From a virus: DNA of 64,000 nt. The stretch spans positions 1 to 64,000 of the IMG/VR virus record IMGVR_UViG_3300037200_000158; one strand, given 5' to 3'. Below the pieces are notes generated by a model. It was not told where the DNA came from. It did no database searches and worked only from the letters and a program-made list of their open reading frames with translations. This document shows positions 13,996-57,000 of the stretch, one piece after another; positions within the stretch are counted from its first letter, which is position 1; each line of letters starts with the position of its first letter. The position numbers and the translations under genes were made by a program.

Positions 13996-14037
13996 GGCTG
14001 TCGGCCGAACGGTTCGCCGCGAGCGCCTTTTTTCTCT
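13996..14037 (+). terminator. probable intrinsic terminator
   Basis: Imperfect GC-rich hairpin (GGCTGTCGGCCGAAC/GGTTCGCCGCGAGCGCC) followed by TTTTTTCTCT. Confidence 0.45.
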
Positions 14038-14128
14038 GAATCTGCGCGGTATAGAGCGGCGGGAAATCCGCCGACGGGGCTCTGACGATTCTTCCCTTCA
14101 TTGATTCCGCGCGGATTTGGAGGTAGAG

Positions 14129-14137
14129 TGTATTACA
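14129..14137. promoter_or_regulatory. TGTATTACA palindrome
   Basis: Perfect 9-mer, 12 nt before ATG 14149. Also overlaps the alternative ATG at 14137. Confidence 0.55.
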
Positions 14138-14148
14138 TGGAAAACACG

Positions 14149-14706
14149 ATGAAGCGCCGCGCATTCTTCAGCTTGTTCGGGGCCGCACCGCTGGCCGTTG
14201 CCGCGGTGCCGGAGTCTGTGCCGGCAAAGCCGCTGTCCACTCGCCGCGCTCTGCTGCCCGAGGAGATCGTCCAGGCTGCGCTCGTTCGCATGGGTTCACT
14301 CCAAATTGGTCGTTATCCGGCTCCGGAAGAGGTGACGTTCGCCCTTATGCGCCTTATGCCGGGCATGGACGATGCCGACCTGGCCAAGGTGCTTGCGCCG
14401 TACTATCCGACTACCGCGGATTTGGCCGTGACCCAGCCGGTACAGTACGGCACCACGATCCCGCAGATGTGCGTGAAGTGCGGCGGCGCGCTGATGGCCA
14501 TGTCATTCCGCTTTCCTGATGCCCGCCGGATCATGCAGTGCTCTGGTCCAGGATGCGAAAATCATCATCCATGGGTTCAGAACGGATATGCTCTATCTGG
14601 TCCCGCGTGCAAGCCTGTCGGCCAGGTAATAGTCAATAGCCGTGGCGAATTCTGGGTGTGCGCTATCGCGGATAGCTGGAAAGTCAACGCCCCGGTGGCG
14701 CGATGA
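14149..14706 (+). CDS. exported protein with twin-arginine-like signal
   Basis: MKRRAFFSLFGAAPLAVAA..., with Cys pairs later in the sequence. Track ORF trimmed (alternative start 14137). Confidence 0.6.
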   Translation: MKRRAFFSLFGAAPLAVAAVPESVPAKPLSTRRALLPEEIVQAALVRMGSLQIGRYPAPEEVTFALMRLMPGMDDADLAKVLAPYYPTTADLAVTQPVQYGTTIPQMCVKCGGALMAMSFRFPDARRIMQCSGPGCENHHPWVQNGYALSGPACKPVGQVIVNSRGEFWVCAIADSWKVNAPVAR

Positions 14707-14921
14707 CCCGGACCCCGCTCGATAGTTCCCTGGTGCAGGCCGTTTCGCACGATCCCGCGACGAACACCGCGCAGGTAGAGCTCCTGCACAAAGGCACCTA
14801 TGCCTACCACGACGTACCGCCCGAGGACGTACAGGCGCTGATCGGCGCTAAATCAGCGGGCGCGCACTTTAACGGCGTGTTTAAGGCCGCGCACGGGCAT
14901 AAGGCGAGGAAAGTCGCATGA
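14703..14921 (+). CDS. KTSC domain protein
   Basis: 72 aa. SSLVQAVSHDPATNTAQVELLHKGTYAYHDVPPEDVQALIGAKSAGAHF matches the KTSC pattern. ATGA overlap. Confidence 0.65.
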   Translation: MTRTPLDSSLVQAVSHDPATNTAQVELLHKGTYAYHDVPPEDVQALIGAKSAGAHFNGVFKAAHGHKARKVA

Positions 14922-15157
14922 AATATCAGGGAAATCCCGTCATCGTCGATGCGGAAGTAATCGAAAAGGTTGACTCGCCAGATGGATCTGGGTACCGACT
15001 CATCCTGCACACCGGAGGGTCAATGTTCGCGTCCGCCGGGATGTGCGCCAGAATGGTGCCGGTTCCCGGCGATTATGTAGTCACGCAGGCGGATGGATAC
15101 GTCTACCTGAACCCGAAGGATGTCTTCGAGCGCAAGTACAGCCCGGTGACCGAATGA
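14918..15157 (+). CDS. hypothetical small protein
   Basis: 79-aa track ORF. ATGA overlap. Confidence 0.55.
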   Translation: MKYQGNPVIVDAEVIEKVDSPDGSGYRLILHTGGSMFASAGMCARMVPVPGDYVVTQADGYVYLNPKDVFERKYSPVTE

Positions 15158-15408
15158 GATCAACGCATACCTACGTCGTCATGGAACTCAGCCCGGCGGC
15201 GCATGCCGAGATTAAGGCGAAGATGCTGGCGGCTGGGTACCAGCACGCGATTGACGGCGATACGATTGACATGCACGGGATCGCGGTTGAGCCCAAGAAA
15301 AAGATCTTCAGTCGCCGAGAGCAGTTAGTCGCCGTTGTTATTGCCGCTCCGCTCTCGCTTATGGCCGCTTACATACTTCTCCACTTAACGAAAATCCCAC
15401 TCTGGTAG
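15154..15408 (+). CDS. hypothetical protein with C-terminal TM segment
   Basis: ATG 15154 (ATGA overlap) within track ORF 15043..15408. LVAVVIAAPLSLMAAYILLHL. Confidence 0.55.
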   Translation: MRSTHTYVVMELSPAAHAEIKAKMLAAGYQHAIDGDTIDMHGIAVEPKKKIFSRREQLVAVVIAAPLSLMAAYILLHLTKIPLW

Positions 15409-15504
15409 TCGTCAGTCAGGCGGTAAGGCTCCGGAACCTCTCAGGCCTGAAACTCTCGGTCAGATGATGACCGCTTATGGGCCCGGCGCACGACTAAAAC
15501 TCAC

Positions 15505-16266
15505 ATGGCTTACAGTTATCTCGGGCAACGCTACGTCGTCCAGGCTTCGTGGGAGGACGCCGCTGCCCACTTGACCCAGGAAGCGCGAGAGGAATTGTGG
15601 TCCTCGATCCCCGAATACCAGCGTGATGCTCGCTCAAAGGGTATTCCGCAGTTGGGCGCAGGTGCCATTTTTGCAATTCCGGAATCTGAGATCGTCGTCG
15701 AGCCGCTAAAGGGCGGCATCCCGGCGCACTGGCCGCGCGGGTTCGGCATGGACCCTCACTGGTCGTTCACTTCGGTCACCTGGTGGGCGCAGGACCCTGA
15801 GTCCCTGACCTGCTACATGTACGACGAATACCAGCGCGAGAAGCAGCCTGTCGGCGTCCATGCGGCTTCGATCAAAGCCCGCGGCGACTGGATCGTCGGC
15901 GTGATCGACAAGGCAGCCGATCAGACCGAAGGCGACGGCGAGAAGTTGCTCGAAATGTATCTGCGCGCAGGACTGCATGTCGTGAAGTCTTCGGCCAGCA
16001 AGGGCGTTGACGCCGGGCTACAGGACATGCTCGACGCGATGCACGAAGGGCGCTTCAAAGTCTTCAGCACCTGTCAGAAGTGGATCAAGGAATTCAGGAT
16101 CTACCGGCGCAACGACAAGGGCGTGATCGTTAAGAAGGCTGATCATCTTTTAGACTCGTCACGCTATTTCTGGAACGATGGTCGCGCGTTGATGCGCGTC
16201 AAGCCGAAGCAGGCGAACTTCCGTCCTTCCGCCCCAATCGCATCTCCCCGCGCATGGATGGCCTGA
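15505..16266 (+). CDS. terL: terminase large subunit, C-terminal nuclease part only
   Basis: YVVQASWEDAAAHL...DARSKGIPQLGAGAIF...GFGMDPHW...VIDKAAD...DHLLDSSRYF is collinear with the post-ATPase linker and RNase-H-like nuclease of TerL proteins. Confidence 0.85.
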   Translation: MAYSYLGQRYVVQASWEDAAAHLTQEAREELWSSIPEYQRDARSKGIPQLGAGAIFAIPESEIVVEPLKGGIPAHWPRGFGMDPHWSFTSVTWWAQDPESLTCYMYDEYQREKQPVGVHAASIKARGDWIVGVIDKAADQTEGDGEKLLEMYLRAGLHVVKSSASKGVDAGLQDMLDAMHEGRFKVFSTCQKWIKEFRIYRRNDKGVIVKKADHLLDSSRYFWNDGRALMRVKPKQANFRPSAPIASPRAWMA

Positions 16267-16268
16267 CC

Positions 16269-16277
16269 TGTATTACA
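16269..16277. promoter_or_regulatory. TGTATTACA palindrome
   Basis: Perfect 9-mer, 10 nt before ATG 16287. Confidence 0.55.
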
Positions 16278-16286
16278 ATGGACGGC

Positions 16287-16799
16287 ATGAGAATTTCCGA
16301 CATCCGCTTGCTCGGCGACCAGGTTTTAGTTAAATGCCTCGGCACGGCCAACATGCAGGGCCGCATCCACATTCCGATGTCCGCCCAGCAAGCCCGGCAG
16401 ATCCATCAGTCAGGCGGCGACTACGTTCATCGAGGCGAAGTGCTGGCGGTTGGCCCCGGCGACCGCATGGACTGGTTCTGGTGCCGCGCCAGCGAGGAAG
16501 TCACGCCGCGCCTCGTCGATTCCATCTTCAAGATCGTCGGCGGCGACACGAAGCAGGTTGTCGCAAGCAATCCGAAGTGCCACACATGTGGCGGAAAGTT
16601 GACCCGGCGCAATCTGGCTCCGAGCCGTTCGCCGATGCCGGTCAAGGTCGGCGACGTGGTGCTGTACGAGCGGCGGCGCGATGCAGTGCTTCAGATTCAG
16701 CGGTTCCCATCGCTCGATCTGGAGGACGATATGCTCGTGATTCTGCTCGCTGAGCAGCACGTATTGGCCGTCCTGGAGTCCGAAGCTAAAGCTGCATGA
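16287..16799 (+). CDS. GroES-like co-chaperonin with internal insertion
   Basis: MRISDIRLLGDQVLVK...GEVLAVGPGDR...VKVGDVVLYE...MLVILLAEQHVLAVLE follows the GroES pattern. A ~55-aa Cys/His-containing insert sits in the middle. Confidence 0.6.
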   Translation: MRISDIRLLGDQVLVKCLGTANMQGRIHIPMSAQQARQIHQSGGDYVHRGEVLAVGPGDRMDWFWCRASEEVTPRLVDSIFKIVGGDTKQVVASNPKCHTCGGKLTRRNLAPSRSPMPVKVGDVVLYERRRDAVLQIQRFPSLDLEDDMLVILLAEQHVLAVLESEAKAA

Positions 16800-17056
16800 C
16801 CCGCACGCTCGACAAGACGATCTTCATCCTGGCCTACTGGCCGATGCTTCTCTGGCTGATGGCGATCCCCCACGAATCCGCGCGTCAGTTCTGGGCGAAC
16901 GTCAGCATGGCTTTTAACGAGCACATGCCGGGCTTCCGATCTCCGCGGCTGTGCAAGATTAGGATGGCGATCTGGCTTATGGGCGTCAGCGGGTGCGTGG
17001 CGACTGGCGCTATCTTTGGCGCGCTGGTACGGCTGGCCTGGCACATCGCCAGGTAG
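16796..17056 (+). CDS. small membrane protein
   Basis: 86-aa track ORF with an ATGA overlap and hydrophobic segments. Confidence 0.55.
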   Translation: MTRTLDKTIFILAYWPMLLWLMAIPHESARQFWANVSMAFNEHMPGFRSPRLCKIRMAIWLMGVSGCVATGAIFGALVRLAWHIAR

Positions 17057-17062
17057 GGACCG

Positions 17063-17407
17063 ATGGACCTCATCCGACGCCTGTTCGCGGTTCTTCGCAT
17101 CCTCTGGTTGCGGTGGCGCAACCCTCCGCCGACGCTTGAAGAATTACAACGTGAGCGAGAGGCGCGGCTGCGGCGGATCGATCAGGAGCACAAGGCCGCA
17201 CTCGCGGAGTTCGATGCGGAACTTGAGCCGATCACCACCCGTCAGGAAGTCAAGCAGGCCTGGGCGGTGCTGAGTCAGGCCCAACGCGCCATCGAGCGCG
17301 CGGATTTGATCGTATCCGGGCAGCCGTATGTAGACCGCTGGGCCGACCATGTTCGCGTGTACGCCGACGGAACCAGAACGCCAATTCCCGGCGACCGGCA
17401 ATTCTAA
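17063..17407 (+). CDS. hypothetical protein
   Basis: 114-aa track ORF. Confidence 0.55.
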   Translation: MDLIRRLFAVLRILWLRWRNPPPTLEELQREREARLRRIDQEHKAALAEFDAELEPITTRQEVKQAWAVLSQAQRAIERADLIVSGQPYVDRWADHVRVYADGTRTPIPGDRQF

Positions 17408-17410
17408 GTC

Positions 17411-17845
17411 ATGAAAATCAACCTTACGCCCCGCTGGCTTCACGATCTTCTGACCAGGAACACCCGGGCCGAACTCGTTGCAGAAATCGCCCTCCTTAAC
17501 AAGCAGTACGGCAAACTCACGGCCGCCTACGAGAGACTCTTTACAGACCTTGAAGTGTCCGAGAAGAACGTCGAGCAACTGCGCGAGCTTTGCACCCAGC
17601 AGCGCGAGGAAATCGCAATGCTTGAACCGCGCCGGGCTGAAGCCGAGAAAGAGCGCCGCGCTACTGAGGCGACGATTCGCCAGGAATTCCTCAACGATAC
17701 CGTGGTGCGCGGCACCCGCTGGGGAGATATGACAGAGGAGCAGCGAGCCGAGGTCGCCAAGCCCACGGAGACATCCCTGCGCGCCGCCATACGACTTCTG
17801 GAATCGCGTATATTAGCACTCGAATCCACGCAAGTGGAAGCGTAA
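17411..17845 (+). CDS. coiled-coil protein
   Basis: 144-aa track ORF with heptad-like charged repeats. Confidence 0.55.
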   Translation: MKINLTPRWLHDLLTRNTRAELVAEIALLNKQYGKLTAAYERLFTDLEVSEKNVEQLRELCTQQREEIAMLEPRRAEAEKERRATEATIRQEFLNDTVVRGTRWGDMTEEQRAEVAKPTETSLRAAIRLLESRILALESTQVEA

Positions 17846-17852
17846 TCGAAGC

Positions 17853-18149
17853 ATGGCTCTCTCGGTAACGCACCTCGGTAAAAACACCAATCGCGACCAC
17901 CACCTCGGACTCAATTCCCTGGATGTTGTGAATGAGATGGGTCGCGAGTTCGGAACCTACATCGTGGACAGTCCGGCGCATGGCAGCGGGGCGGGGCGTT
18001 TCTGGAATGTCCGCTGCAAGGTGTGCGGCGCGCTGACCACGATGCGTGGCGTGCAAATCCGCCGTGATATTGCAAAGCGTGGCGCAAAGCCGTGCAAGTC
18101 CTGCCTGGGAGAACCTACCATGTCTACCATGGTAGAGAATTCGACGTAA
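17853..18149 (+). CDS. zinc-ribbon protein
   Basis: 98-aa track ORF. CKVCG...CKSC. Confidence 0.55.
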   Translation: MALSVTHLGKNTNRDHHLGLNSLDVVNEMGREFGTYIVDSPAHGSGAGRFWNVRCKVCGALTTMRGVQIRRDIAKRGAKPCKSCLGEPTMSTMVENST

Positions 18150-18204
18150 TCACCACGCTATCTAACATTTACAGTAAAGTGCAGCGTCGCGACGACACAG
18201 CACA

Positions 18205-20478
18205 ATGGCACAACCCCTTTCGTCGGGACCGAACCGACACTCCACGAAGGCCACGGGCAAGGATCGTCCCGTCCATGACGCCAGTATTGCGCCGGTAATC
18301 CGAGACGGCGAATCCTCTTCTGTCCGCACCAGCCGCACGAACGATAAAGGACTGGTCATTGTTTCTGCGACCCGCCAGCCGGAAGTTATCGCCGATCCCG
18401 AAGAGGAATTCCTTTCGAAAGCCCGCGAGCGCTTCGCCCGGGTAGTTTCCTCTGAGAACGACTGGCGCCGGGACGCAAAAGAAGAACTCGACTTCACCGA
18501 CGGCCTGAAGCACTGGGACGAAACAATGCGCGCCGAGCGCACTGGCCGCCCCTGCCTCACCTTCGACCGCATCACCCCCGCCGTAAAGCAGGTCGTCAAC
18601 GAAGCGCGGCAGTCTCCGCCAGAACCGGAAGTAGCACCGGTCGGCGGCGGAGCGGATAAGGAAACCGCCCAGGTCATTCAGGGCCTGTTCCGCAACATCG
18701 ACAACGATTCAGGCTCCGACACTGTCTTCATGACGGCGTACGAGCACGCCTGCAAAATCGGGCGCGGCTGGTGGAGAATCCTGTTCGACTGGGAGACTGA
18801 CGATCCCACTTCGCAGGAAGCCTTCCTGCAGAAGCTGATGCTGAAGCGGATTCCGAATCCGTTTTCGATCTACGTCGACCCGGCCTGCCTCGAATTCGAC
18901 TACTCGGACATGGACTTCCTGTTCCATACCGAGGACATTGACCGCGACACGTTCAAGGAACTCTACGGCGAAGATGCCGAGCGCACGCTCGAATACTTCG
19001 GTGCCGGCGTCACCTTCGAGGCCACGGGAGACCGGATACGCAGCGACTGGTTCCCGAATGGGGCCATCCGCGTCGCCGAGTATTGGTACAAAGAACGCAC
19101 GAAGCGGACGATTCATCTTCTCGAGGGCGGCCGCGTCGTCGAGGATGCCGAGCTCTACGATGCCACGCCGGTAGCAACCCGCGAACTCTTCGAAACGAAG
19201 ATCTTCTGCTGCAAGATGACCGGCGGGGATGTAATCCGCCGGTGGGAGTGGCCCGGTAAGTGGATTCCGTTCGTTCCGGTCATCGGCGACGAGATCTGGA
19301 AGAACGGCAAGCGCACCGTCCGCGGCATGATTCGCCCGGCGATGGACGCCAACCTGTCTTACGACTTCATGCGGTCGAAGCAGGCGGAATCTATCGCGCT
19401 TGCTCCGATTTCCCCGGTAATGGCCGCAATCGGCTCCCTCGGGCAGTTCGAGAGCATGTGGGCAGATGCCAACCGCAAGGCCTATGCGGTGCTTCCGTAC
19501 CTTACTGAGGTCAACGGGAAGCCGGTACCTCCTCCGCAGCGCCTGAACACGGCTGACGCGCAAGTACAGGCCATTACGCTCGCGATCGCTCATGCCGAAA
19601 ACGACATCGAGGCGATGACGCAGACGTACAAGCCCGATCTCGGAGCTCCACAGGCCGAAGCGTCAGGACGGGCGATTCTTGCGCGACAGCGAGAGGGCGA
19701 CAACGCCCACTTCAACTACCACGACAACCTGGCGCGGTCGATTCGCCGTACTGGGCTGATCGAACTGGACCTCATTCCGGTCGTCTACAGCGAAGAGCGG
19801 GCGATTACGATCTTCGACCCGGACCAGAGCGTTCGTTCGGTAACGATCAACGCTATGACGCTCCACAAAGGCGCTCAGCGTATCTTCGACCTCGCGCAAA
19901 CGCACGGCGCGGCGCGGTACGACGTTGTCATGAAGTCGGGACCATCGTATGCAACCCGCCGGCAGGAAGGCGCGGCGGCCTTGATGGACCTCATCAAGTT
20001 CATCCCGGGTCCAATGTCACGAGCGCTGGACCTGCTCGTCGGCTACCTGGACATCCCGGATCAGGACGCACTCGCGGCGCGGTTGCGGCCTGCGGACATC
20101 CCGACCGATGATGGCCCGACCATCCAGCAGTTGACGCAGCAGAATCACCAGATGCAGCAGTTGATTCAACAACTGACGCAATCGGTGAACGCGCTAAGCG
20201 ACAAGACGGCGGCAGAGCGGCTGAAACTGGCATCGCAGGAGCGCACTGCGATCCACGGAGACTTTGCGGGTATCCTCGAAGCTCTCATCAAGGCGAAATC
20301 CAGTGGGGCGGAAGCGTTACTGTCCGAAGTGGCAGAGACGCTCCGCCAGCGAGAAGCGCAACTCGCGGCAAGCCAGGAAACGGCCAATCCAGACGCAGCG
20401 GGAAGTCAGCCGCAGGGGCAGCCAGCGGCACAACCGCAGGCCGCGCCGGGTCCGGCGGCACCTTCAGCCTCTTCGTAG
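18205..20478 (+). CDS. portal protein
   Basis: 757 aa, positioned after the terminase. WRRDAKEELDFTDGLKHWDE...RTGRPCLTFDRI...VVNEARQS...IQGLFRNI matches the conserved portal N-terminal pattern of P22/T7-like phages. Confidence 0.85.
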   Translation: MAQPLSSGPNRHSTKATGKDRPVHDASIAPVIRDGESSSVRTSRTNDKGLVIVSATRQPEVIADPEEEFLSKARERFARVVSSENDWRRDAKEELDFTDGLKHWDETMRAERTGRPCLTFDRITPAVKQVVNEARQSPPEPEVAPVGGGADKETAQVIQGLFRNIDNDSGSDTVFMTAYEHACKIGRGWWRILFDWETDDPTSQEAFLQKLMLKRIPNPFSIYVDPACLEFDYSDMDFLFHTEDIDRDTFKELYGEDAERTLEYFGAGVTFEATGDRIRSDWFPNGAIRVAEYWYKERTKRTIHLLEGGRVVEDAELYDATPVATRELFETKIFCCKMTGGDVIRRWEWPGKWIPFVPVIGDEIWKNGKRTVRGMIRPAMDANLSYDFMRSKQAESIALAPISPVMAAIGSLGQFESMWADANRKAYAVLPYLTEVNGKPVPPPQRLNTADAQVQAITLAIAHAENDIEAMTQTYKPDLGAPQAEASGRAILARQREGDNAHFNYHDNLARSIRRTGLIELDLIPVVYSEERAITIFDPDQSVRSVTINAMTLHKGAQRIFDLAQTHGAARYDVVMKSGPSYATRRQEGAAALMDLIKFIPGPMSRALDLLVGYLDIPDQDALAARLRPADIPTDDGPTIQQLTQQNHQMQQLIQQLTQSVNALSDKTAAERLKLASQERTAIHGDFAGILEALIKAKSSGAEALLSEVAETLRQREAQLAASQETANPDAAGSQPQGQPAAQPQAAPGPAAPSASS

Positions 20479-21240: not shown

Positions 21241-21507
21241 ATGCACGCAGTAACGAATCTTCCGCTATTCGTGGGAGACATGGTTGAGATCGGCCGAGAA
21301 ACCTTTACGGTCAAGCAGATCATTGCCGATCCCGGTGCCTCGATGGCAATGGCTGGAAGCGCTGGCCCTGTCACCGCGGATCGTGGTGCCTATCTGGTCC
21401 ACGGCATCCTGGAAAAGGTATCCCCAAAACCGGACGACTATACCTGGCTCCCGGAGGCATCTGGCTGGCGCAAGGTTTCGCTGATGGAAGGTGAACCATG
21501 CCAGTAG
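21241..21507 (+). CDS. hypothetical small protein
   Basis: 88-aa track ORF. Confidence 0.55.
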   Translation: MHAVTNLPLFVGDMVEIGRETFTVKQIIADPGASMAMAGSAGPVTADRGAYLVHGILEKVSPKPDDYTWLPEASGWRKVSLMEGEPCQ

Positions 21508-22727
21508 CAGAATTGCCCGAGATCGTGGTTAACTCGAAATCGCCGGGTAACACGCCAGAGGTGGTCGCGGGAGTCATGCGCGACCTTGGGTACAACGTAG
21601 GTTCGGTGGAAGTGCAGGAAGCGCAGCCAACCCCCGAAGAAGAGGCGAACGCTGCCGCAACCGAACAGGCGGAAACTGAAGCCGCCGAGGCCGCTCTCGA
21701 AACCGAGCGCGTCGAAAAGGAAGAAAAGGAAAAGAAGTCCCGCAATGACCGCCGCCGCGAAGCTAAAGAGCGCGACCAGCAGGCCATCAAAGACGCGACC
21801 GAGCGCGCTGAACGGGTAGAGCGGGAATTCGCCGACTTCAAGGCTAAAACAACCTCCGAATTCGAAGATCTCCGCAAGAATCCTCCGAAGGCCGAAGTCG
21901 CCGCCCCCGAACTCGTTGCTCCGAAGCGCCCCACTCGCGCCGAGTTCTTCGAAGCAGCCGATCCCGAAGCGGCATACGAAGATGCGTTGCTCGATTACGG
22001 CGACGCCCGCCGCACCTACCAGCAGAAGCTCGAAGAGAGCAAGAAGCCGAAGGCATCGGAACCGGAAAAGCCCGCAGCCGCCGCGAAGCCCGACACTCAG
22101 GTCGCCACGCAGTCCTTCGACGACGTTCTGGCGACAACCAAAGATCCGACGTTGAAACGCTTCCTGACGAACGTCAAGGAAGTGTCTGGCAAGCATCCCG
22201 ATGCCGCGAAAGCCATCGAAGAGAACCTGCCGAACGTCAACCCAGCTATGATCTCCGCCATTCATCAGTTCGATGAACCGGCGCGAATCGCACTGTATCT
22301 CGCGAAGCATCCCGACGACTCGAAACGAATCAAGGGCCTCACGGACGGAAACGTCGCAGAGGATCCCCGCAAGATTCGCAACGCCCTGACGGAACTCGCG
22401 AAAATCGAGCAACTGGCAGCAGAAGAAGACGCAGCCAGCGGAGCCGCATCCGGCAGCGAAGAAGACGACGAGCAGCAGACGACACAGCCCGATCCCGAGG
22501 TTGACGCTGCGGCCGCCCGTATTTCCCCGCAGCCACAACGCCCCGCAGCAGCCCAGAAGCCGCCAGTCGCTCAAACCCCGCAACCTACAGGCAAGAAGAA
22601 AGCGACTCCGATCGATCCCATCGGCGCGCGCGGCGCACAGCACGAAAAGCGTTATGAAGATATGACGCCCGACGAGCAGCGCAAGCTCAGCCCCGATGAA
22701 GTTCGCAAGATGCGCGGGATGCTCTAG
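21498..22727 (+). CDS. scaffolding protein (putative)
   Basis: 409 aa, strongly charged, Ala/Glu/Lys-rich and helical. Lies between the portal and coat genes. Confidence 0.6.
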   Translation: MPVAELPEIVVNSKSPGNTPEVVAGVMRDLGYNVGSVEVQEAQPTPEEEANAAATEQAETEAAEAALETERVEKEEKEKKSRNDRRREAKERDQQAIKDATERAERVEREFADFKAKTTSEFEDLRKNPPKAEVAAPELVAPKRPTRAEFFEAADPEAAYEDALLDYGDARRTYQQKLEESKKPKASEPEKPAAAAKPDTQVATQSFDDVLATTKDPTLKRFLTNVKEVSGKHPDAAKAIEENLPNVNPAMISAIHQFDEPARIALYLAKHPDDSKRIKGLTDGNVAEDPRKIRNALTELAKIEQLAAEEDAASGAASGSEEDDEQQTTQPDPEVDAAAARISPQPQRPAAAQKPPVAQTPQPTGKKKATPIDPIGARGAQHEKRYEDMTPDEQRKLSPDEVRKMRGML

Positions 22728-22856: not shown

Positions 22857-22953
22857 ATGGCGAACGAACTCATTAACCCGGTCGCGGTTGCACAGGATTC
22901 ATTAATACGCTGGGAGAACAATCTCACTGCCGCAAAGTACGTGAATCGCGAGT
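22857..22953 (+). CDS. major capsid (P22-type coat) protein, exon 1
   Basis: ATG with GAAAGGAAA upstream. MANELINPVAVAQDSLIRWENNLTAAKYVNRE is a typical coat N arm. Unspliced, it hits TAA at 22959-61. Confidence 0.7.
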
Positions 22954-23234
22954 CGGCGTAAGCCGGGCTCCTCGGTTGAGCAATCAGCCGCAGCAAACGG
23001 TGTGAAACGGGGAACCCCTAAAGCCGCAAGGCCATGGCAATCCCGTAGGAAGTCAGTTGTCCGCTCAAATCGGACAACTGGATGCCTCTAACGACCATTC
23101 CGCAAGGAAGTAGGCTCAAGCGAGCCGAAGCGCACCGCGCCCCATGAGGGCGATGATATGGTCTAACCTCACGACGAAAGCGTGAGCAGCCCGCAAGGGC
23201 GGATTCCGGCGGCGGTCGGAATCGAATATAAGTG
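22954..23234 (+). mobile_element. group I-like intron 1 (no ORF)
   Basis: P1-like hairpin GAGU|CGGC-GUAA-GCCG-G-GCUC with a U.G wobble. GNRA-capped helices and CCUAAAG/CAUGG receptor-like motifs. Homologous to intron 2. The 3' boundary is uncertain by 3 nt. Confidence 0.6.
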
Positions 23235-23273
23235 TCGATCCACAGTTTGCGCTGCCAGGTGACAAGATTGGGT
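23235..23273 (+). CDS. major capsid protein, micro-exon 2
   Basis: Encodes (F)DPQFALPGDKIG, the F-x3-G-D-x-I motif expected after the coat N arm. Flanked by intron-like RNA. Confidence 0.55.
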
Positions 23274-24339
23274 TCCCCTAACGGGGCAAGCCCCAGCGGA
23301 GAGAGATCTCCGTTTGCAAATCGGGTGAATTGCTGGAAACTCCTAAAGCCGCATACTGCGGATATCATGGACAATCAGCAGCCGAGCCTGATGTAATGGT
23401 TCAGTGGAAACCGAAGAAAGATCCTGTGTTCTTTGCGGCAGCAGCGGCCCGTTCTATCCGGGAGGCGGCATGCGTAAAGAGCGCTGCAAAAAGTGCATGT
23501 CGAAGTACGCTATTGAGCGCCGCGAAGCGAGAATCGCAGCGAATCCCAGCTTGTACGATGAGCACTTGGCATACGAGAAGGCGCGGAACGCGCGGCACGT
23601 CAAAATGGTCCTGGACTATTATGGCGCCGAGTGCGAGTGTTGCGGCGAAACCGAGCCGAAGTTCTTGACGGTTGACCACATAGAACCGATTGGCAGTTAC
23701 AAGAAAAGAGTCGAGAGGGGCCACAACCGGATGTACTCATGGCTCGTCTTGAATAGCTTTCCGCCGGGCTACCGGCTTCTCTGTTCAAACTGCAATCATG
23801 GACGCGCCCGCAATGGCGGGATATGTCCGCATCAGGAAGGTTCACAGGCCAGAGCGAAAGCTCGTAGCCGCAAGCGCGGCGAAGTCCCCGAGGTCCACCA
23901 GCAACATGTGGATCGTGATATGGTCGATCCTGCACTGAAAGGTGCAGCAGTTCCCGTAGGAAGCTGGGCGGATAATCCGTACTGGCCTTTCGACGGGCCG
24001 CGCTGAGTCCAGCGAACTCAGTGGAATACAAGAGACACGTTTAATGCCCGTCATTCTAAAGGAATAGCGGCCTGACCGAGTAATCGGCCAGTGAAGAACA
24101 TCGAGTAATCGGCGAATCCCGAAGGGCCGCAAGGCACCCGGCAACGCCGAGGTATTTCCGTTATGAGCGGAAGGACCGTAGAGGCCATCCCGCAAGGGAG
24201 TAGGAAGTAAGCGCTTCCGAAGTACGATGCAGCCGGGCAACCGGCTGGTGACATGGTCCGAACTCATGCGACAAGTATGAGCAGCCCGCAAGGGCGCGCG
24301 CAGGCATAAGCAGCCGGCGCGGAACACAATTGATTCCTG
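23274..24339 (+). mobile_element. group I-like intron 2 carrying an HNH ORF
   Basis: P1-like GGGU|U-CCCC-UAAC-GGGG-CAA-GCCC co-varies with intron 1. The 5' (23274-23400) and 3' (24180-24332) parts are homologous to intron 1. An alternative 3' end at G24332 is possible. Confidence 0.6.
23404..24006 (+). CDS. HNH homing endonuclease (intron-encoded)
   Basis: CECCG...LTVDHIEP...LLCSNCNHGR, with an N-terminal CxxC...CxxC. GTG start (alternative ATG 23470 with GGGAGG upstream). Confidence 0.85.
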   Translation: METEERSCVLCGSSGPFYPGGGMRKERCKKCMSKYAIERREARIAANPSLYDEHLAYEKARNARHVKMVLDYYGAECECCGETEPKFLTVDHIEPIGSYKKRVERGHNRMYSWLVLNSFPPGYRLLCSNCNHGRARNGGICPHQEGSQARAKARSRKRGEVPEVHQQHVDRDMVDPALKGAAVPVGSWADNPYWPFDGPR

Positions 24340-25421
24340 TGCGTTTCCGCGGTCGCATCGGCGACCAAATGCAGCCCGAGAGCATCCGCGAAACGGTTGT
24401 TCCGGTAACTGTCAACCAACTCTGGGGCCAGGATCTTCAGATCTCGGACCAGGACCTCACCATGACAATCGACCGCTTCGGCGAGCGATATGTCGAACCC
24501 GCCGTTCAGATCATTGCAAACATGATCGACACGGCGATCCTCAACCTCTACACCTCCGTCTACAACTTCTCGGGCACTCCCGGGGTGTTGCCGACTTCGC
24601 TGTCGACCTATACGGACGCCGGCGTAGTTCTGGCGGACAGCGCCATGCCGAAGGGCCGGATGACCTCGCTTCTGGTCAACCCGCGTTCCGAAGCGGCCGT
24701 GCTGGGCTTCGTCAACAACATCTTCAACCCGCCCAAAACTATCGGCGAGCAGTACCTGACCGGTAAGATGGGCGAGGCTGTTGGATTCAAGTGGTCGATG
24801 GACCAGAACATCCAGCGGCAGACGGTTGGACTCTGCACTGCCTCTCAGCCCGTCGTTAACGCGGCGAATCAGAGCGGTAACAGCATCACCACCTCCGGCT
24901 GGGCGAACAGCGTCCAGGTGCTGAATACCGGCGACATCGTGCAGTTCGGCGGATGCGATTCGGTCAACCCGATCAGCTACAACGATACGGGTTCGCTGCG
25001 CAGCTTCGTCGTTACGGCGCCTGTCGTGTCGAGCAATGCCGGTCTTGCGACGATTCCGATCTCTCCCGATCTGAATGCCGACGTTACCAGTTGCTTCCAG
25101 ACCGTTACTGCACTGCCCGCGAACAACGCGCAGGTGTATGTGTACGGCGTTGGATACCCCAACCTCGGCAACATCTCCGGCGTCAGTTCGGCGCAGAATC
25201 TGGCGTTCCACCGCGACGCGTTCACTCTCGTGATCGTGAAGCTCGAACTACCGGGCGGCATGGAGTGGTCGGAAGAAGTCTCGAACCCGCGAGTCGGAAT
25301 CTCGATTCGCCTGGTGCGCGGCTACTCGATCAAGGACAACCAGAAGTACACGCGGCTCGACGTTCTCGGCGGGGTCAAGACGATCCGTCCGGAATTTGCG
25401 GCACGCATCTGCTCGAACTAA
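24340..25421 (+). CDS. major capsid (P22-type coat) protein, exon 3
   Basis: Track ORF 24330..25421 has no credible start. RFRGRIGDQ...DLTMTIDRFGERYVEPAV...NLAFHRDAFTLVIVKLELP is collinear with P22 gp5-family coats. Exons 1-3 total 1218 nt, in frame. Confidence 0.8.
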
Positions 25422-30107: not shown

Positions 30108-30180
30108 TTCGGTGTGGCGCAGCGGTCAGCGCGTCGGCCTCATAAGCCGAAGGTCGTGGGTTCGAGTCCCTCCACCGTTA
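30108..30180 (+). tRNA. tRNA-Met-like (CAU anticodon), imperfect stems
   Basis: Hand fold: D arm GCGC-AGCGGTCA-GCGC, anticodon arm TCGGC-CTCATAA-GCCGA, variable loop AGGTC, T arm GTGGG-TTCGAGT-CCCTC (one U.U mismatch). The acceptor pairs only 5 of 7 positions. No encoded CCA. Confidence 0.55.
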
Positions 30181-42344: not shown

Positions 42345-43796
42345 ATGCCCCTGTGGGAAAGTTTCTGCGGACCCTCGTACCAAAGCAGGTCCCGAACAGT
42401 TTCTACGGACCAACTCCGTAACATGTACCCGGAATCCGTGGAGAGCGGAACCGGTAAGGGCCGCTATGCCCTTTACGGCCGCCCCGGCAACGCGCTCTTC
42501 TCCACGCTATCGCTCGCCAATTCCGGCGCAGGCTCCGGCCAGGGACTTCTCGAGGTCCAAAACCGCTGCTTCGCGGTCGCGGGCGGGAACGTCTACGAGG
42601 TCGCGGCATCCGGCGACTTCTCCCTCATCGGCCCGGTAGGCACCCTGAACCCTGTTTCGATGGCGTGCAGCGCCACACAGGTCATCATCGTGTCGCCCGA
42701 CGGCGGCGGCTGGATCATTCCGCTTGCGAACACGGCAGGCTACGCCCAGATTAATTCGGCCGGCTTCCCGCTCAATCCGACGTACGTCACCTATCAGGAC
42801 ACGTACTTTCTGGTCGCGGCGGGCGGCACGCAGGAATTCTTCATCTCGGCGAACAACGACGGCACAAGTTGGAACGCGCTCGACTTCGGATCGAAGGAAG
42901 GCGCATCGGACTTCATCCTTGCGGTTCAGATGGTCCGGCGCCAGCTCTGGGTGTTCGGGACCGAGACCTCGGAAATCTGGTGGAACAGCGGCGCGGCGAA
43001 CTTCCCGTTCCAGCCTATTCAGGGCGCGCTGGTGGAAGTGGGACTTGCGGCGGTGCTGTCCCCTGCCGTTGTAGGAAATGGTCTGTTCTGGCTCGGAAGA
43101 AACAGCCGCGGCGAAGCTGTAGCATTTGCGGAGCAGAACTTCGCTCCGATCCGAGTCTCGAACCACGCAGTGGAGTCGGCGTGGGGGCAATATCCGAAGA
43201 TCTCGGACGCAATCGGCTACGGCTACGAAGAGAACGGGCATACGTTCTACGTGCTGAGTTTCCCGTCGGCCAATGCAACATGGGTGCTCGACACGAAGAC
43301 GGGCTTCTGGCATGAATGGGACTGGTGGAATACCGATCTCGGTGTATCGGAGGCGGCGCTTGCCCGCTTCCACTGCTTCTGCTTCGGCCAGCACCTGACG
43401 CTCGACTGGAAGATCGGGAATGTCTTCGCTCAGTCGCTGAACACCTATACCGATAACGGTGGAATCATTCGGCGGGTCCGGCGTTCGCCTCATGTGGATC
43501 AGGCGAAGCATCGCAATCGGCATGTACGCCTCCAACTCGATATGGAGGTGGGCGCTGTTCCGGCCGGGACGAACCCGGCTTATTCCATGCGGTTCTCGGA
43601 CGACGGCGGATTCACCTGGTCGAACGAACTCATCCGCTACATCGGAAAAACCGGCAAGTACGCGAATCAGGTTGTGTGGCGGCAACTCGGCAGTTCGCGA
43701 GACCGCGTTTACGAAGTGGTGGATACGAATTCTGACTTCAGCGTCGCATGGGCGGCGGCATATTTAGAAATCGCTCCCGGCACGGAACTCCAATAA
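42345..43796 (+). CDS. P22 gp10-like tail hub / packaged-DNA stabilisation protein
   Basis: 483 aa. LWVFGTETSEIWWNSG and the C-terminal RFSDDGGFTWSNE...VVWRQLGSSRDRVYEV parallel P22 gp10 (from memory). Confidence 0.65.
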   Translation: MPLWESFCGPSYQSRSRTVSTDQLRNMYPESVESGTGKGRYALYGRPGNALFSTLSLANSGAGSGQGLLEVQNRCFAVAGGNVYEVAASGDFSLIGPVGTLNPVSMACSATQVIIVSPDGGGWIIPLANTAGYAQINSAGFPLNPTYVTYQDTYFLVAAGGTQEFFISANNDGTSWNALDFGSKEGASDFILAVQMVRRQLWVFGTETSEIWWNSGAANFPFQPIQGALVEVGLAAVLSPAVVGNGLFWLGRNSRGEAVAFAEQNFAPIRVSNHAVESAWGQYPKISDAIGYGYEENGHTFYVLSFPSANATWVLDTKTGFWHEWDWWNTDLGVSEAALARFHCFCFGQHLTLDWKIGNVFAQSLNTYTDNGGIIRRVRRSPHVDQAKHRNRHVRLQLDMEVGAVPAGTNPAYSMRFSDDGGFTWSNELIRYIGKTGKYANQVVWRQLGSSRDRVYEVVDTNSDFSVAWAAAYLEIAPGTELQ

Positions 43797-51070: not shown

Positions 51071-54000
51071 ATGCCCGACACTGATATTTGGGATATAGCG
51101 GCAGCCGCGAAGAGCGCGCCGCCCCCCTCCGCTGACATCTGGGATATTGCCGCGTCTACGCCAGGGTACCGCTCGCCCTACAGTCGTGAGGCGATGGAGG
51201 CTAACGCGCCCGGCGTGCCGAAAGCACCGTTGCCATATGAACTGCAGAAGCCGGATGAGCAGGCGGAAACAAATCGCGCCGGCGGGTCCACGTTCCAAAA
51301 TCCACGAACTGGGAGAATCTATCCGCGCCAGCAGCCCGGCAGTGAGAGTGGCCCATTGTCGGCGTTGGATCTCCCGATTCAGGCACCGGGCCACGCAGCG
51401 GAAGCTGTCGAGGCACTGGCGACACCAGCCGAAGACGCCGCGATGCAGATTGCTGCCGGTGTTCCACCTGCGCAGGTCGCCCTAAGTCCCGAATCTCTCA
51501 AGGCCGGAGCTCGCGGTGTCGCAAAGGGCATTCAGGCGGGATTAGAGGCCGCAACGCCATTACTCGCTGGTGGAGCTGCAGCCGCGCCGCTCGAAACAGC
51601 CGCCACGCTCGCGTCCGCCGCATTTGCCCAAGCGAAGACCGAAGATCTCCTGAAGCAGGTCGGGGTAGCGCCGGAGTACTCGGAACTCGCCGGAAGTGTC
51701 GCCGGGCTGCTCGCTGGTTACGCCGCCGGGAAGATTCGGCTGAGCCCCGAACAGGCATCGCTGATCGAGACTCTGCAAGGCAAGGATGCGCAGACACCGG
51801 AAGGGCAAGCCGCGCGAGTCCATAAACTTCAGGCTATGGCCAGCGACCCCGGAGCATCGCAGGGAGAGCGCGATGTAGCGTCGGCACTCCTGAAGCGAAA
51901 CCACGGCATCGAGTTCGAGCCGTTTCGGCCTGCGGAAGCGCCCGCTGCGCCCGAGAGCGCCGCTAGTACCCCAGCGACCGCTGAAACGCCACAGGCCGCG
52001 CCTGAGACGCCAGCGGCCCAACCTGAAGCGAACGCCGCTCCGGCTGAGACGAACGTTCCCGGTTTCGAGACGCGCGAGATCCTTCCCGAAGACGTGAAGC
52101 CCGGCGCAATCCTTCGGGACGCCAACGGACGAACAGGCGTTGTCACCGAACTTCGGCAGGGGAAGAATGTCAAATGGACGGACGATACCGGCGCCGAACG
52201 CACGACTACGCTGCCGAAGTTTCTCCAGCGGATGACAGCGATCGCGCAGACTCCCGCAGCGTCGGCACAGCCAGAAGCGCCCGTTAGCCCGCCGGTCGGC
52301 ACCGCCCCTCCGACTGAGCAGAATCAGCAACCCGCAGCGCCGCAGGTACAGGAAACGCCCACTTTAGGCGCCAACCTCCCGCCGGAGCAAATGCCCGGCC
52401 CGGCAGTCACGCAGGCTGGCGCGGAGAATACGGAGCACGTCGAGAAAGAGGTTCAGGCTGCGGAAGCGGTCGCGCCGCCTGCAACGGCGGTTGAAGCGCC
52501 AGCAACTCCGGTTGTAGCCGCACCGCCGCCCGAGCTCCCGCACACGGTCGAAGCACTCCCTCCCAACGAGGAACCGAAGGAAGCCGAAGCGCCCTACAAG
52601 TTCTCGTCCGCGCAAGTCAATCTGCCGACAGCCTATCACCGCGCGTTCACGGATGCGGTTGCCGGGATTCCAGACTCCGAACTCGCCGAGGACGGACGTG
52701 AAGACGATCCCCACATTACCGCTCTCTACGGGATTCATTCCACGTCAGCCGAACCCGTCAAGAAGCTCCTGAAGGATCAGGGGCCTATCACGGCGACCAT
52801 TGGCCCGATCTCGATCTTCAAAGGCGAAGACGGAAAGCCGGATGTCGTCAAACTCGATATCGACTCGCCCGCACTCCACGATCTGAATGGAAAACTCCGC
52901 ACGTTGGAGCACACGAATAACGTCCCGGACTACACGCCACATCTGACCTTGGCCTATTTGAAGCCGGGCGAAGGCGCAAAGTACGTCGGGAAGGTCGTGC
53001 CGGGGCTTACCGGGCAGCAGGTTACGTTCAACCGTCTGATGTTCAGCGGCAAGGACCAGGCACGCACGGATATCCCGCTCGCAGGCCAAACGAAGCCGGA
53101 GCGTCCGCGCGCCATCGAAGAGTCCGCGCCCGAAGCGCCCTCCGGTGAATTCGGCAAGTCCTCCCTTTCCCGCCTGAGCGACAAGGAAATCCGCGCAGCC
53201 GCAGCGAAAGACGGTATCGACCCGGAACCATACCTCGCGGAGCGCGCCGGCCCCGGCGGCAACCGCACCGGGCGGAACAAGTTAGAGCACGCGATTTTTG
53301 AAGCGGGAGAAGCCCGCAAGGCGAAGGGGGTGATCCAGCCGAACGCAGAAGCGCCGGCAGCCGCGCCAGTGGAGGCGGCTCCGGGGAAGACGAAGGCAGA
53401 GCAGATTGCGGCGAATGAGGCGCGCATCCGCGAACTGGAGTCGAAACTCGGCGCATCCGGCACCGTTCCGGCCACGAAGCCAAATCCGACGACAACGAAG
53501 ACGGTCCAGCAGTTGCGCGGCATCGCCGACACGCTCGACAAGCAAATCGAGGCGAAGCGGAATCCCGCGATAGCGCAGCAGAACCCGACGAGGCGACGCG
53601 CAGACATCGCCGCCGGTATGGCGAAAGAGGCCGACGCGATGGAGTTGGTCCAGTCCACGCTCCGCAATCTCGCCGACGCCCACGAGAACGGCTCTATTCC
53701 ATCGGTTCTGACGAACGTAAAGACGCGACCGCTTCTCGAGGACCTTCTCAGCCGCGACAAATTCCCGCAGGCGTGGCTGCACAGCGCGACCGTTACTCAC
53801 ATCACCACCGCGCTGAAGGGCAAGCCGAACACCAAGGAAGCAGTTGATCTCTTGACGCGCCGAAATGGTGGCGATGGCGTGCGCCTGACGGGCATGAAAG
53901 AGATAACGCTCGTCAGAGACCTGCTGGATAAGGCTGACGCCGCCGGGATCGGCCCAGCGAAGTACGCGAAGGAGGAACTCGCTCGGGCGACACGCGCATA

Positions 54001-57000
54001 CGGCGCAGGGTTGACGCCAGAGAATTGGCTCCAGGCTCATCAGGCGCTGAAGCCGTACGCAACCACAAAATCCGTTATACCTCCGAAAGAGCGCCAGATC
54101 GCAGAACTTGAACGTGGTCTGATCGGACGCAAGATCGAAGGTTTCTTCCCGACACCGAAAGCGCTCGCCGACAGAATGGTCGAGGAAGCGGACATCAAGC
54201 CCGGTATGCGAGTACTCGAACCGAGCGCCGGAAATGGAAGGCTTGCCGACGCTATCGCGAAAAAGACGGATGAACTCACCGCCATAGAGCCGGTGTCCGA
54301 CCTGCGCGCCATCCTCGACCTGAAGGGACACGCAGTTTCTGAGGACCGCGACTTTCTTGCGCACCGCGGCGAATACGACCGTGTCGTGATGAACCCGCCG
54401 TTCGAGAACGGGCAGGATATGGACCACGTCCGCCACGCTTTCGACCTCCTGAAGCCGGGCGGGAAGTTGGTCGCCATCATGGGCGAAGGTGGTTTCTTTC
54501 GCGGCGACAAGAAGGCGACGGCGTTCCGTGAATGGCTCCAGGCTCACGGGGGCACGAGTGAAAAACTGCCAGAAGGCACGTTCAAAGAGAGCGGCACTGG
54601 CGTAGCCACGCGTCTGGTAACGGTCACGAAAGCGGCCGCCACGAAGGAAGCGCCCGCAATAGCCCGAGCGCCGGCCGAAACGCCGAAGCCGAAAACCGCG
54701 CCGCTTCCCGAGGCGGACTACGCCGAAGTTGAGACCAAACTGGCGAATTCCGAAGCGGACCTCCGGGCCGCACGCCAGAACTACGAACGCCTGGACGATC
54801 TCTTCCGCGTCGTCAAAGATGCCACGGAGCGCGAACTCTCCGGCATCGACCTTCAGGAGTTCTCACGCGTTAAAAACTTAGACGAGGTAGAGGAAGATGT
54901 CCGCAAGCAACTGATTCTCGCGGGCCGCAAGTACGAGGCGGCAATGACGGCGCACGACCAAGCCCTTAATGCGGCCGCTGCGGTAAATCCGCTCCTGACG
55001 CCGCAGGCAAAGCCGATAGGTCCCGGCGTGCCGGTGCCCGAGGCTAAGGAAGCGAATAGCTCGCTTGGCGGAACAATCGACGAGGTGTCCGACCAGATCA
55101 AACTCATGGCGCGGCGTGGCGCTGATGATGCCGAGTATGACCCGCGCGACGATGTCCCTGATCTGAAAAGCAGCCTGAAGTTCCTCGATGAAGATATCCG
55201 CGATCTGGAGCACGCCGATCCTGCCTTGATGGCAACTGCGAAAGAGACTGCCGCGACCGCACGCAAGGTCATCGAGAGCGCGGAATCGTATACCGTTCCG
55301 CCGCCGAAGCCGGAACCGTCAGCCGACAGATACCGCGAACTCGACGCGCAGGTTAAGGCGATGCACAAGAACCCGGCGTATGCCGAGGACACGCCCGAAG
55401 GGCGACGGTTGCGCAATCAGGCGCTGGAGCTCAGCGACGAAAAGGAAATCCACCGTCCGGCATTCGTTGAAGAAGTGAATGCGGAGAGTATTGCCAAAGC
55501 CAAAGCGGAGCCGAAGGGACTTCCCGCGCCAGCACAGCGCGCCGTTGACGAGTTGAAGGACCTGGAGGCGGACGCACAGAAACTTCGCTCCACTGACTTC
55601 TCAAAGATTGACGCCAAAGACCCGGTAGCGAAAGAGGTTTCTGAAGACGCGCTGAAGACTGCCAAGCTCAAGGTCGATATGCGGAAGTTGCCCGGCTCCG
55701 CGCCGAATGCGCCGGAGCGAGTGGGCGAGTTCGATGCCTATCCGAAAACTGGGACCGTCACGATTCCCGCTGCGACCGCGAAGCAGATTGTCCCGCCTCT
55801 AAAGAAGGTAATCGAGGCCAAATCGACCATCCCGATCCTGAAGAACGTCTCCGTCATCAGCCAGAAAGGCAAGACGAAGATCACGGCGACCGATCTGGAG
55901 CAGGCAGTCACGTTCACGATCCCGACGAAGGCCCCGAACAGCGCAGTCACCATCCCGGTATCGGCTCTCGACCAGGCGATGAAGGCGAAGAACAAGGGCG
56001 ACCTGAAGATTGACTTCCAGCCCGGTACGGTCCCATCGCAAAACGGAAAGGCATCACTATCGGTCGGCCCGGCAGAGTCCAGCGCGGCTACGCTCGACAT
56101 CTCGAATTACCCCGAGATCCCCACGGCCACTGAGAAGGTGGGTAAGATTCCGGCGGAGAAGCTGCTGGACGCCATCAAAAAGACGTTCTACGCAATCTCC
56201 GCAGAAGAATCACGGTTCACCCTCAACGGCGCATTGTTAGAGGTTAAGGGCGGCAAAGCGAACATGGTGGCAACTGACGGCCATCGGCTCTCGGCTCAAT
56301 CGTTCGACGTTCCTGGTATTGAAGGTGACCATCGCTTCCTACTGCCGCGCCGGACACTCGACACGATGACAAAGTTGTACGCGAAGCATGCGGGAGACCT
56401 GACGGTTAACGCTGGCACTGGCGCAAGTAAGAAGTTCCTGACATTCGACACGCCCGACGGCACAACCTCGCTCTACACGATGCAGTTGGATGGGAACTTC
56501 CCCGACTACCAGCGCGTACTGCCGAACCCGCGCAACTACACGCATACGGCCACGGTGGACCGCGAAGAACTGCTCGACCTCATGAAGCGTATTATCGCCA
56601 TGAAGGAGCGCAGCAACAACGTTCTCCTGTCGTTCCGCCCCGATCAGGTGATTGGGTTCAAGTCGGCAGACGGCGCGGAAGTCAGGGGATCGGCACCGGC
56701 CACGCTGAAGACGCTTCCTGTGCCTAAACCTGAAAAGGACGAGGTTCAGCAAAATACCGAGCGCCGCCCGAACCCGCGCGAGAACTTCAACGCAAAGTAC
56801 ATCGCTGACGCCATTGCGCCGCTCGAAGGCAAGAACGTCGAGATCAACCTTCAGGATTCCAGCACCGCGCGCAATATGGGCGCGATGACCATCAGAGATC
56901 CACAAGACCCGAACCACACGGCAATCATTATGCCGATGCGGGACGACGTGGGGAACTGGGACGACGGGCTACCGCCGGTGAATCCGGTAAAAGAAGAGGG

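Follow-up and report, generated by a model that had tools for sequence, protein, structure and literature searches.

Reading frames and exons of the coat gene

We analysed a 64,000-nucleotide (nt) stretch of viral DNA (positions 1 to 64,000 of IMG/VR record IMGVR_UViG_3300037200_000158; hereafter the window), whose plus strand carries a phage head module with a portal gene, an open reading frame (ORF) in the scaffold position and then a split gene for a P22-type major coat protein (Table 1). Comparison with related phages indicates that this coat gene (22857-25421, plus strand) is interrupted by three related group I introns, I1, I2 and I3, a reading to which we assign a probability of about 0.88. 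The four exons measure 97, 39, 17 and 1089 nt, and all three introns lie inside the first 52 codons, within 20 codons of one another. Insertion sites are denoted by codon and phase (33.1, 46.1 and 52.0).

Three reading frames listed in an initial annotation of the locus are present: an N-terminal frame that runs from the ATG into a TAA at 22959 (22857-22961, 34 codons), a coat-like frame of 363 amino acids (aa; 24330-25421) that lacks a coat N-terminus and matches PF11651, and an HNH-like frame between the two. What it proposed in essence holds: related group I introns, one of them with an HNH frame, divide the coat gene and leave a micro-exon, which does lie at 23235-23273. The number of introns and their boundaries had to be revised; instead of two introns and one micro-exon, there are three introns, with micro-exons of 39 and 17 nt.

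Table 1. Genes, exons, introns and intron helices of the coat locus. Positions are those of the window; paired segments are joined by "with".
Feature	Position	Strand	Description
P22-type portal gene	18205-20478	+	PF16510, 463.8 bits
409-aa ORF in scaffold position	21498-22727	+	no family match
Coat exon 1	22857-22953	+	97 nt; codons 1-32 and base 1 of codon 33; ATG at 22857
Intron I1	22954-23234	+	281 nt; no ORF; site 33.1; predicted group I (subgroup IA type)
I1 P1 guide	22967-22970		GCUC
I1 P3	22998-23004 with 23131-23137
I1 P7	23093-23097 with 23159-23163		GACCA with UGGUC; P7.1 and P7.2 between P7 and P3'
Coat exon 2 (micro-exon)	23235-23273	+	39 nt; encodes (F)DPQFALPGDKIG and base 1 of Tyr46
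Intron I2	23274-24034	+	761 nt; site 46.1; predicted group I; HNH ORF in P6 loop
I2 P1 guide	23290-23293		GCCC
I2 P3	23321-23325 with 23887-23891		UCGGG with CCCGA
I2 P6	23387-23393 with 23830-23836		CCUGAUG with CAUCAGG; encloses ORF
Putative HNH-type homing-endonuclease ORF	23404-24006	+	200 aa from GTG; in P6 loop of I2
I2 P7	23847-23851 with 23921-23925		GGCCA with UGGUC
Coat exon 3 (micro-exon)	24035-24051	+	17 nt, ACACGTTTAATGCCCGT; completes Tyr46 and encodes TFNAR
Intron I3	24052-24332	+	281 nt; no ORF; site 52.0; predicted group I
I3 P1 guide	24067-24070		GCGG, with exon CCGU
I3 P3	24099-24103 with 24225-24229		CAUCG with CGAUG
I3 P7	24183-24187 with 24254-24258		GGCCA with UGGUC
Coat exon 4	24333-25421	+	1089 nt including stop codon; starts at Ile52 (ATT CCT GTG = IPV)

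The exons were checked with a spliced-alignment program that scores codons against a profile made from columns 1-120 of the family alignment, permits introns only after T and ending in G, and allows no indels. The program returned exactly three introns, at the sites given above; it placed the end of exon 1 and recovered exon 3 without prior input. Independently of the T/G rule, the junctions are fixed by the continuous sequences of two relatives: L001, which has no introns, and L002, which carries only an equivalent of I2 (760 nt, with an HNH ORF) at identical junctions. The exon 1 junction is uninterrupted in both; in L002, exon 3 and the downstream exon are contiguous, and GAGTTTGAC and GCCCGCGTGCCC read continuously across sites 33.1 and 52.0. 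For distant homologues, those scoring under about 260 and at most 45% identical, the "introns" that the program reports are artefacts of its no-indel design and were ignored; by tblastn, homologues at or below 45% identity are uninterrupted.

The residues of exon 2 align with the conserved FDxxFAxPxxKxG of the homologues, exon 3 restores the conserved Y[VT][FYV]NAR, and exon 4 opens with a conserved, in-frame IPVRFRGR. Joining the four exons gives 1242 nt and a predicted coat protein of 413 aa that contains the peptides EFDPQFALPGDK, IGYTFNAR and IPVR. This product matches phrog_283 with 204.2 bits (residues 1-412 to profile positions 1-383 of 385) and PF11651, the P22-type coat family, with 88.5 bits (cut-off 24). 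The comparison with intron-less homologous phages proposed in the initial annotation supports an interrupted gene: the coat gene of L001 is continuous, and the 413-aa product and P0001, a homologue whose gene is uninterrupted, are 91% identical in a gapless alignment.

The two-intron arrangement proposed at first has introns at 22954-23234 and 23274-24339, a single 39-nt micro-exon and a 405-aa coat protein (1218 nt). Its joined sequence is in frame, position 24339 is a G, and phrog_283 still matches the product, at 195.5 bits compared with 204.2 bits for the 413-aa product. We nevertheless give it almost no credence. Alignment with PF11651-type coat proteins identified the 405-aa product as a coat protein and exposed an 8-residue gap: a search with this product returned 273 homologues, the full-length ones having 413 aa, and every full-length homologue has Y[VT][FYV]NAR[IV]P (YVFNARIP) at the gap. 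The absent (Y)TFNAR is encoded by ACACGTTTAATGCCCGT at 24035-24051, and IPV is encoded in frame at 24333-24341, right at the upstream side of the proposed 24339/24340 junction. In addition, L002 carries only the equivalent of 23274-24034, after which its coat gene reads straight through, and profiles of introns from other contigs (see below) place a full 3' half (23846-24032) and a full 5' half (24059-24151) inside the supposed second intron. The similarity noted initially between 22954-23234 and the blocks 23274-23400 plus 24180-24339 is real, but the two blocks do not belong to one intron; both resemble I1 because the 5' half of I2 had been joined to the 3' half of I3.

Group I architecture of the introns

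Profiles built from 18 introns of other contigs, without sequences from the window, located three 5' halves (22967-23044, 23288-23393 and 24059-24151) and three 3' halves (23090-23234, 23846-24032 and 24182-24331), in the order 5'-3', 5'-ORF-3' and 5'-3' along the locus. The E-values were 1.3e-36 for I1, 9e-18 and 1e-24 for the 5' and 3' halves of I2, and 3.2e-23 for I3, where the match spans core positions 4-269.

Eleven ORF-less introns were aligned with MAFFT by sequence alone, and an RNAalifold consensus was computed on top of this alignment. P2, P3 enclosing P4-P6, two hairpins between P7 and P3', P8 and P9 were recovered, with a compensatory change in 41 of the 49 predicted pairs. The P7 pseudoknot was then added by hand; its strands are GACCA/UGGUC in I1 and GGCCA/UGGUC in I3, while most relatives have GACUA/UAGUC and L004 has GGUCA/UGACC. 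Once P7 is counted, standard pairs occupy 93.7% of 587 cells, versus 31-44% after sliding the partners by 1-3 columns; both sides change in 44 of 54 pairs, and none of 500 shuffles reached the observed values. Both the minimum-free-energy and the centroid fold of I1 show P1 to P9.2 directly, and z is -4.3 for I1 and for I3.

At each 5' splice site, a 4-base exon segment ending in U pairs with a guide starting in G to form P1 with a U.G wobble: GAGU/GCUC for I1, where the U is the last base of exon 1, GGGU/GCCC for I2 and CCGU/GCGG for I3. The guide tracks the exon in the 21 introns tabulated at six sites, among which GGAU/GUCC and CCAU/GUGG also occur; L018, for example, has CCGU/GCGG and L019 CCAU/GUGG. 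The initial annotation had proposed such co-varying, U.G-ended pairings for the first two 5' splice sites, and these were confirmed. The last intron nucleotide is G in all three introns (23234, 24034 and 24332).

In-frame stops follow closely, 6-24 nt past the 5' splice site (TAA at 22959-22961 in I1, TAA at 23279-23281 in I2 and TGA at 24073-24075 in I3). A stop at most 24 nt from the 5' splice site was found in all 25 introns compared, the three of the window and 22 in related loci. Such stops may release ribosomes from unspliced RNA before they reach the ribozyme core. Many relatives have a conserved UAG directly 5' of the guide sequence.

Pairing reaches 100% in hairpin P7.1 (columns 167-182) and 98% in P7.2 (columns 186-201), compensatory changes affect 3 of 4 and 5 of 5 pairs, and both hairpins are present in I1, I2 and I3. 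Hairpins in this position, between P7 and P3', are what we take to be the hallmark of subgroup IA in the classification of Michel and Westhof, the class of the T4 and Twort introns. By this feature, the introns are assigned to subgroup IA, a placement that extends to the IA level and not to IA1, IA2 or IA3. The CCUAAAG...CAUGG motifs, which the initial annotation had rightly called receptor-like, lie in P5 and co-occur across the family with a GAAA loop in P9 (23017-23045 and 23169-23187 in I1). The site-52.0 lineage (I3 and its counterparts in L003 and L078) lacks both the motif and the GAAA loop and has a GCGACAAGU-type loop instead (24121-24147 and 24264-24282 in I3), which suggests a co-varying tertiary contact between L9 and P5 that has been swapped in this lineage.

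Several observations weigh against reading the insertions as three group I introns that are spliced out. The Rfam Intron_gpI model (RF00028), a check suggested in the initial annotation, did match the I1 region (22937-23186, 40.7 bits, E=1.7e-8) and the I2 region (23251-23947, 27.8 bits, E=1.3e-4; the 3' core falls near 23883-23947), but both scores fall below the gathering threshold of 50 bits, at which no intron is found at the locus, and I3 gave no match at E<=10 even when searched alone. We take this as a sensitivity limit of one all-subgroup model rather than as evidence against group I. Just 4 base pairs (bp) of P1 involve the exon, and inspection by eye revealed no clear P10 pairing for I2 or I3. 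The consensus structure and the covariation count come from the same alignment; the slid-partner control argues strongly against an alignment artefact. The evidence for an HNH endonuclease consists of a PHROG match and motifs; the score for Pfam PF01844 is 14.5 bits, below the cut-off of 21.4. The 17-nt exon must serve both the 3' splice site of I2 and P1 of I3, which could make splicing inefficient or lead to exon skipping. What can be read directly from the sequences is the intron boundaries, the ribozyme architecture with its covariation, the restored frame, and the presence or absence of introns in relatives; splicing, and the self-splicing activity of the three putative group I ribozymes, we infer from these.

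The HNH reading frame of intron I2

The ORF enclosed by P6 of I2 has its best PHROG match in phrog_2255, "HNH endonuclease" (E=8e-16), in agreement with the HNH-like frame noted at the outset, and shows the motif pattern CxxC...DH...N...CxxCNH. A search of PDB sequences with the ORF gave no useful match. Its start is uncertain, as a GGAGG-ATG occurs at 23461-23472. The frame reads on through P7, P7.1, P7.2, P3', P8 and P9 to a stop at 24004-24006, so that its last ~57 codons are ribozyme core (P6' to P9.x). Compared with the L002 protein, the N-terminal ~150 residues are conserved and the core-encoded tail is not. Homologous ORFs are present in the site-46.1 introns of L002, L004 and L005. I2 is presumably mobile by homing, with the ORF as its putative endonuclease.

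Distribution and origin of the introns

Among relatives with at least about 55% coat identity, introns occur at 15 distinct loci and are absent from about 11. Besides L001 and L002, introns are found at sites 33.1 and 52.0 in L003 and L072, at 33.1 and 46.1 in L004, L020 and L055, and at all three sites in L078 (2511-3570; Logan SRR29078248, 34.9 kb), which comes from a different sequencing run. The L078 coat protein is 84% identical to that of the window, and its gene has the same layout of three introns (262, 271 and 280 nt) and two micro-exons, without an intron ORF. The clade as a whole has at least six insertion sites, all in codons 33-84: 33.1, 46.1, 48.2, 52.0, 52.2 and 84.0. Site 48.2 is occupied in L018 and L019, 52.2 in L006 and 84.0 in L067 (4020-4313); two of these three further sites lie just 2-11 nt from those of the window.

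The comparison with L078 bears on a reading in which the coat gene is dead, part of a decaying prophage in which the insertions are non-splicing intron relics or other mobile DNA and no full-length coat protein is made. The sub-threshold Rfam scores and the unrecognised I3 would fit such decay, and L071, a relative located on a Bryobacteraceae contig of 311 kb, may be a prophage. We consider this very improbable, as the four exons keep the frame and encode a product 91% identical to an uninterrupted homologue, the helices are intact in all three introns, and so are the portal, scaffold and head-closure genes nearby. A second phage, L078, which was found in another sample, has retained this architecture, and its orthologues of I1 and I3 differ from those of the window in P2 and P9 by compensatory changes, which points to selection on RNA structure.

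I1 has orthologues at the same site in L078, L003 and L072, and I3 in L003, L072 and L078. The closest relative of I1 is the site-33.1 intron of L003 (66% identity), that of I2 the site-46.1 intron of L002 (77%) and that of I3 the site-52.0 intron of L003 (72%), whereas the mutual similarity of I1, I2 and I3 is 47-61%. Because same-site similarity exceeds mutual similarity, the three are best described as paralogous, site-specific lineages of one intron family; the intron duplication that the initial annotation had suggested is not supported as a recent event within the gene. The site-46.1 intron of L078 (271 nt) cannot be aligned with I2, so that two lineages are recognised at this site and introns appear to turn over at a fixed position. 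I1 and I3 are most alike from P9 to the end (69%, with an identical CAGCCCGCAAGGGCG), and exchange between them in this segment could be imagined, although the signal is too weak to claim. The site-33.1 introns of L003 and L018 carry an HNH ORF different from that of I2, which makes an ORF-bearing ancestor probable for the ORF-less I1.

A profile search for further copies of the intron family in the window gave only a weak 38-nt match (43075-43112, plus strand; E ~0.003-0.009, the P7'-P9 part), which lies inside an intact head-closure ORF (42345-43796, phrog_578) and was judged to be chance. When I1 was searched by blastn against 50,697 phage records, only core matches of 55-70 nt were found, in unannotated stretches of Aeromonas and Pectobacterium phages and of two ~153-kb Staphylococcus phages that are probably Twort-like. 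The contig of L071 belongs to a metagenome-assembled genome (MAG), and another coat protein comes from an Acidobacteria MAG; these contexts hint that the high-GC phage of the window probably infects Acidobacteriota.

Proposed splicing and spread of the introns

In the mechanism we propose, the late coat pre-mRNA would lose three introns to give the mRNA for the 413-aa coat protein, each intron recognising its own 5' exon through its 4-bp guide pairing ending in U.G. The ORF-less I1 and I3 would most likely persist or spread through co-conversion with the neighbouring endonuclease intron, or have ORF-bearing ancestors; we infer this homing route from sequence comparison. As a test for co-conversion tracts, exon identity next to shared introns was compared, and the differences were small and inconsistent.

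The tandem introns might instead give rise to regulated or alternative splicing, whose products tune the amount of coat protein or yield a minor variant, a role of the kind put forward for exon skipping in Twort orf142. Because I1 and I2 are both in phase 1, skipping of exon 2 would keep the frame and remove 13 residues of the N arm, while loss of exon 3 would put the following codons out of frame. Where similar group I introns stand in tandem, skipping has been reported for the 23-nt exon of Twort and a 34-nt exon of Coxiella, according to the summary in PMC10136302. Here, however, the guides differ (GCUC, GCCC and GCGG), which should favour correct pairing, and all homologues conserve the residues that exons 2 and 3 encode, so that we regard this possibility as unlikely.

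A more elaborate proposal, doubtful when its three parts are taken together, is that the first ~85 coat codons serve as a landing pad for one group I intron family. It would combine the diversity of the region (at least six sites, at least two lineages at 46.1 and up to three sites occupied together) with the ideas that the packing is not accidental, the ORF-less introns co-converting with the HNH intron 17-39 nt away, and that the tandem array is functional, either through an exon-2-skipped coat variant or by harming co-infecting relatives that have no introns. An intron endonuclease of phage PhiPA3 has been shown to act as a weapon against co-infecting relatives (PMC11620839).

Consequences for annotation

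With three introns in the coat gene, gene callers break it up into a stub of 34 aa, an HNH gene and a coat protein truncated at its N-terminus. Among the 120 best coat homologues, 64 (within P0007-P0118 of the list) cover at most 90% of the query, and the short homologues inspected start at or just after Ile52. Gene callers thus appear to truncate the coat protein of this clade routinely because of the introns, leaving the coat proteins of a whole clade of soil phages mis-annotated. A more distant coat gene (36% identity; L079:501-2016, from MW202674.1, Podoviridae sp. ctn9Y15, 16569-18084) is annotated as two "P22 coat protein" coding sequences, split after ~100 codons, and its ~220-nt insert has a GACUA...UAGUC pair resembling P7. 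This insert is probably another unannotated intron; the family profile gives no match to it.

Other features of the window

A transfer RNA gene (30108-30180, plus strand, 59.9 bits) with the anticodon loop CUCAUAA (anticodon CAU) lies inside the structural region. A giant ORF of 2812 aa (51071-59509, plus strand) has PHROG matches to large DNA-methyltransferase-like proteins (residues ~890-1200), to a "DNA polymerase processivity factor" family (1563-1958) and to an RNA-ligase-like segment (541-634), and its product may be a virion protein or an injected protein with several domains. The region immediately upstream of the portal gene, 14000-18200 (plus strand), holds only ORFs of 85-253 aa, none of terminase size, and the intron-family profile has no match there; the large terminase gene may therefore sit elsewhere or be split by something else.

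Comparison with known systems

The T4 introns of td, nrdB and nrdD (sunY) belong to subgroup IA2, and in td and nrdB the loop of P6 holds the endonuclease ORF; each gene has one intron, the genes serve nucleotide metabolism, and the endonucleases are GIY-YIG enzymes or defunct. The introns described here share with them P7.1 and P7.2, an endonuclease ORF in a peripheral helix and an in-frame stop soon past the 5' splice site, and differ from them in that three introns sit in one coat gene and the ORF is of the HNH type. No long sequence similarity to the T4 introns was detected by blastn against phages, which gave only the 55-70-nt core matches elsewhere.

The closest parallel is Twort orf142, in which, as PMC10136302 summarises from Landthaler and Shub 1999, three group I introns of subgroup IA2 occupy one gene with a 23-nt exon and exon skipping occurs. 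The initial annotation was fair in calling the arrangement unusual, but it is not unprecedented: both cases have three related IA-class introns in one phage protein gene and a very short internal exon. Here, by contrast, the predicted splicing concerns the P22-type major coat gene of a high-GC phage known only from uncultivated material, an HNH ORF is present in one of the introns, and there are two micro-exons, of which the 17-nt one is shorter than the 23 nt given for Twort.

Introns in capsid genes are known as well. In mycobacteriophage LittleE, an 819-bp intron of the capsid gene, probably group I and associated with an HNH gene, was shown to be spliced by reverse transcription polymerase chain reaction and N-terminal protein sequencing (PMC3706429), which also cites a capsid intron in lactococcal phage Tuc2009. 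LittleE resembles the phage of the window in having an intron with an HNH endonuclease in the major capsid gene, and differs in that the intron is single, the HNH gene lies on the opposite strand, the capsid protein is of the HK97 type with a delta domain, and there are no micro-exons. In Bastillevirinae, two or three group I introns are present in DNA-polymerase and terminase genes (PMC11878797); as here, an essential gene holds several introns and intron content varies among close relatives. The host genes and the phage clade are different there, and a word search of PMC11878797 revealed no mention of capsid genes or short exons.

In literature searches, we found no description of the coat-gene introns of this clade. 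They would extend the phage group I introns of the T4 and Twort class to high-GC, P22-like phages that probably infect Acidobacteriota. Within the clade, a single ribozyme family is represented by 25 natural variants, which are spread over six sites and of which some have an endonuclease ORF and others have none. The two phages with three introns and a 17-nt exon offer a system for studying splice-site choice, exon skipping and spread by co-conversion. Their value thus lies in annotation and in tandem-intron splicing, and not in a new principle: the kind of arrangement is already known, and what is new is its unusual density, three IA-type introns with two micro-exons inside 20 codons of a structural gene that is essential and highly expressed, kept in at least two phages.

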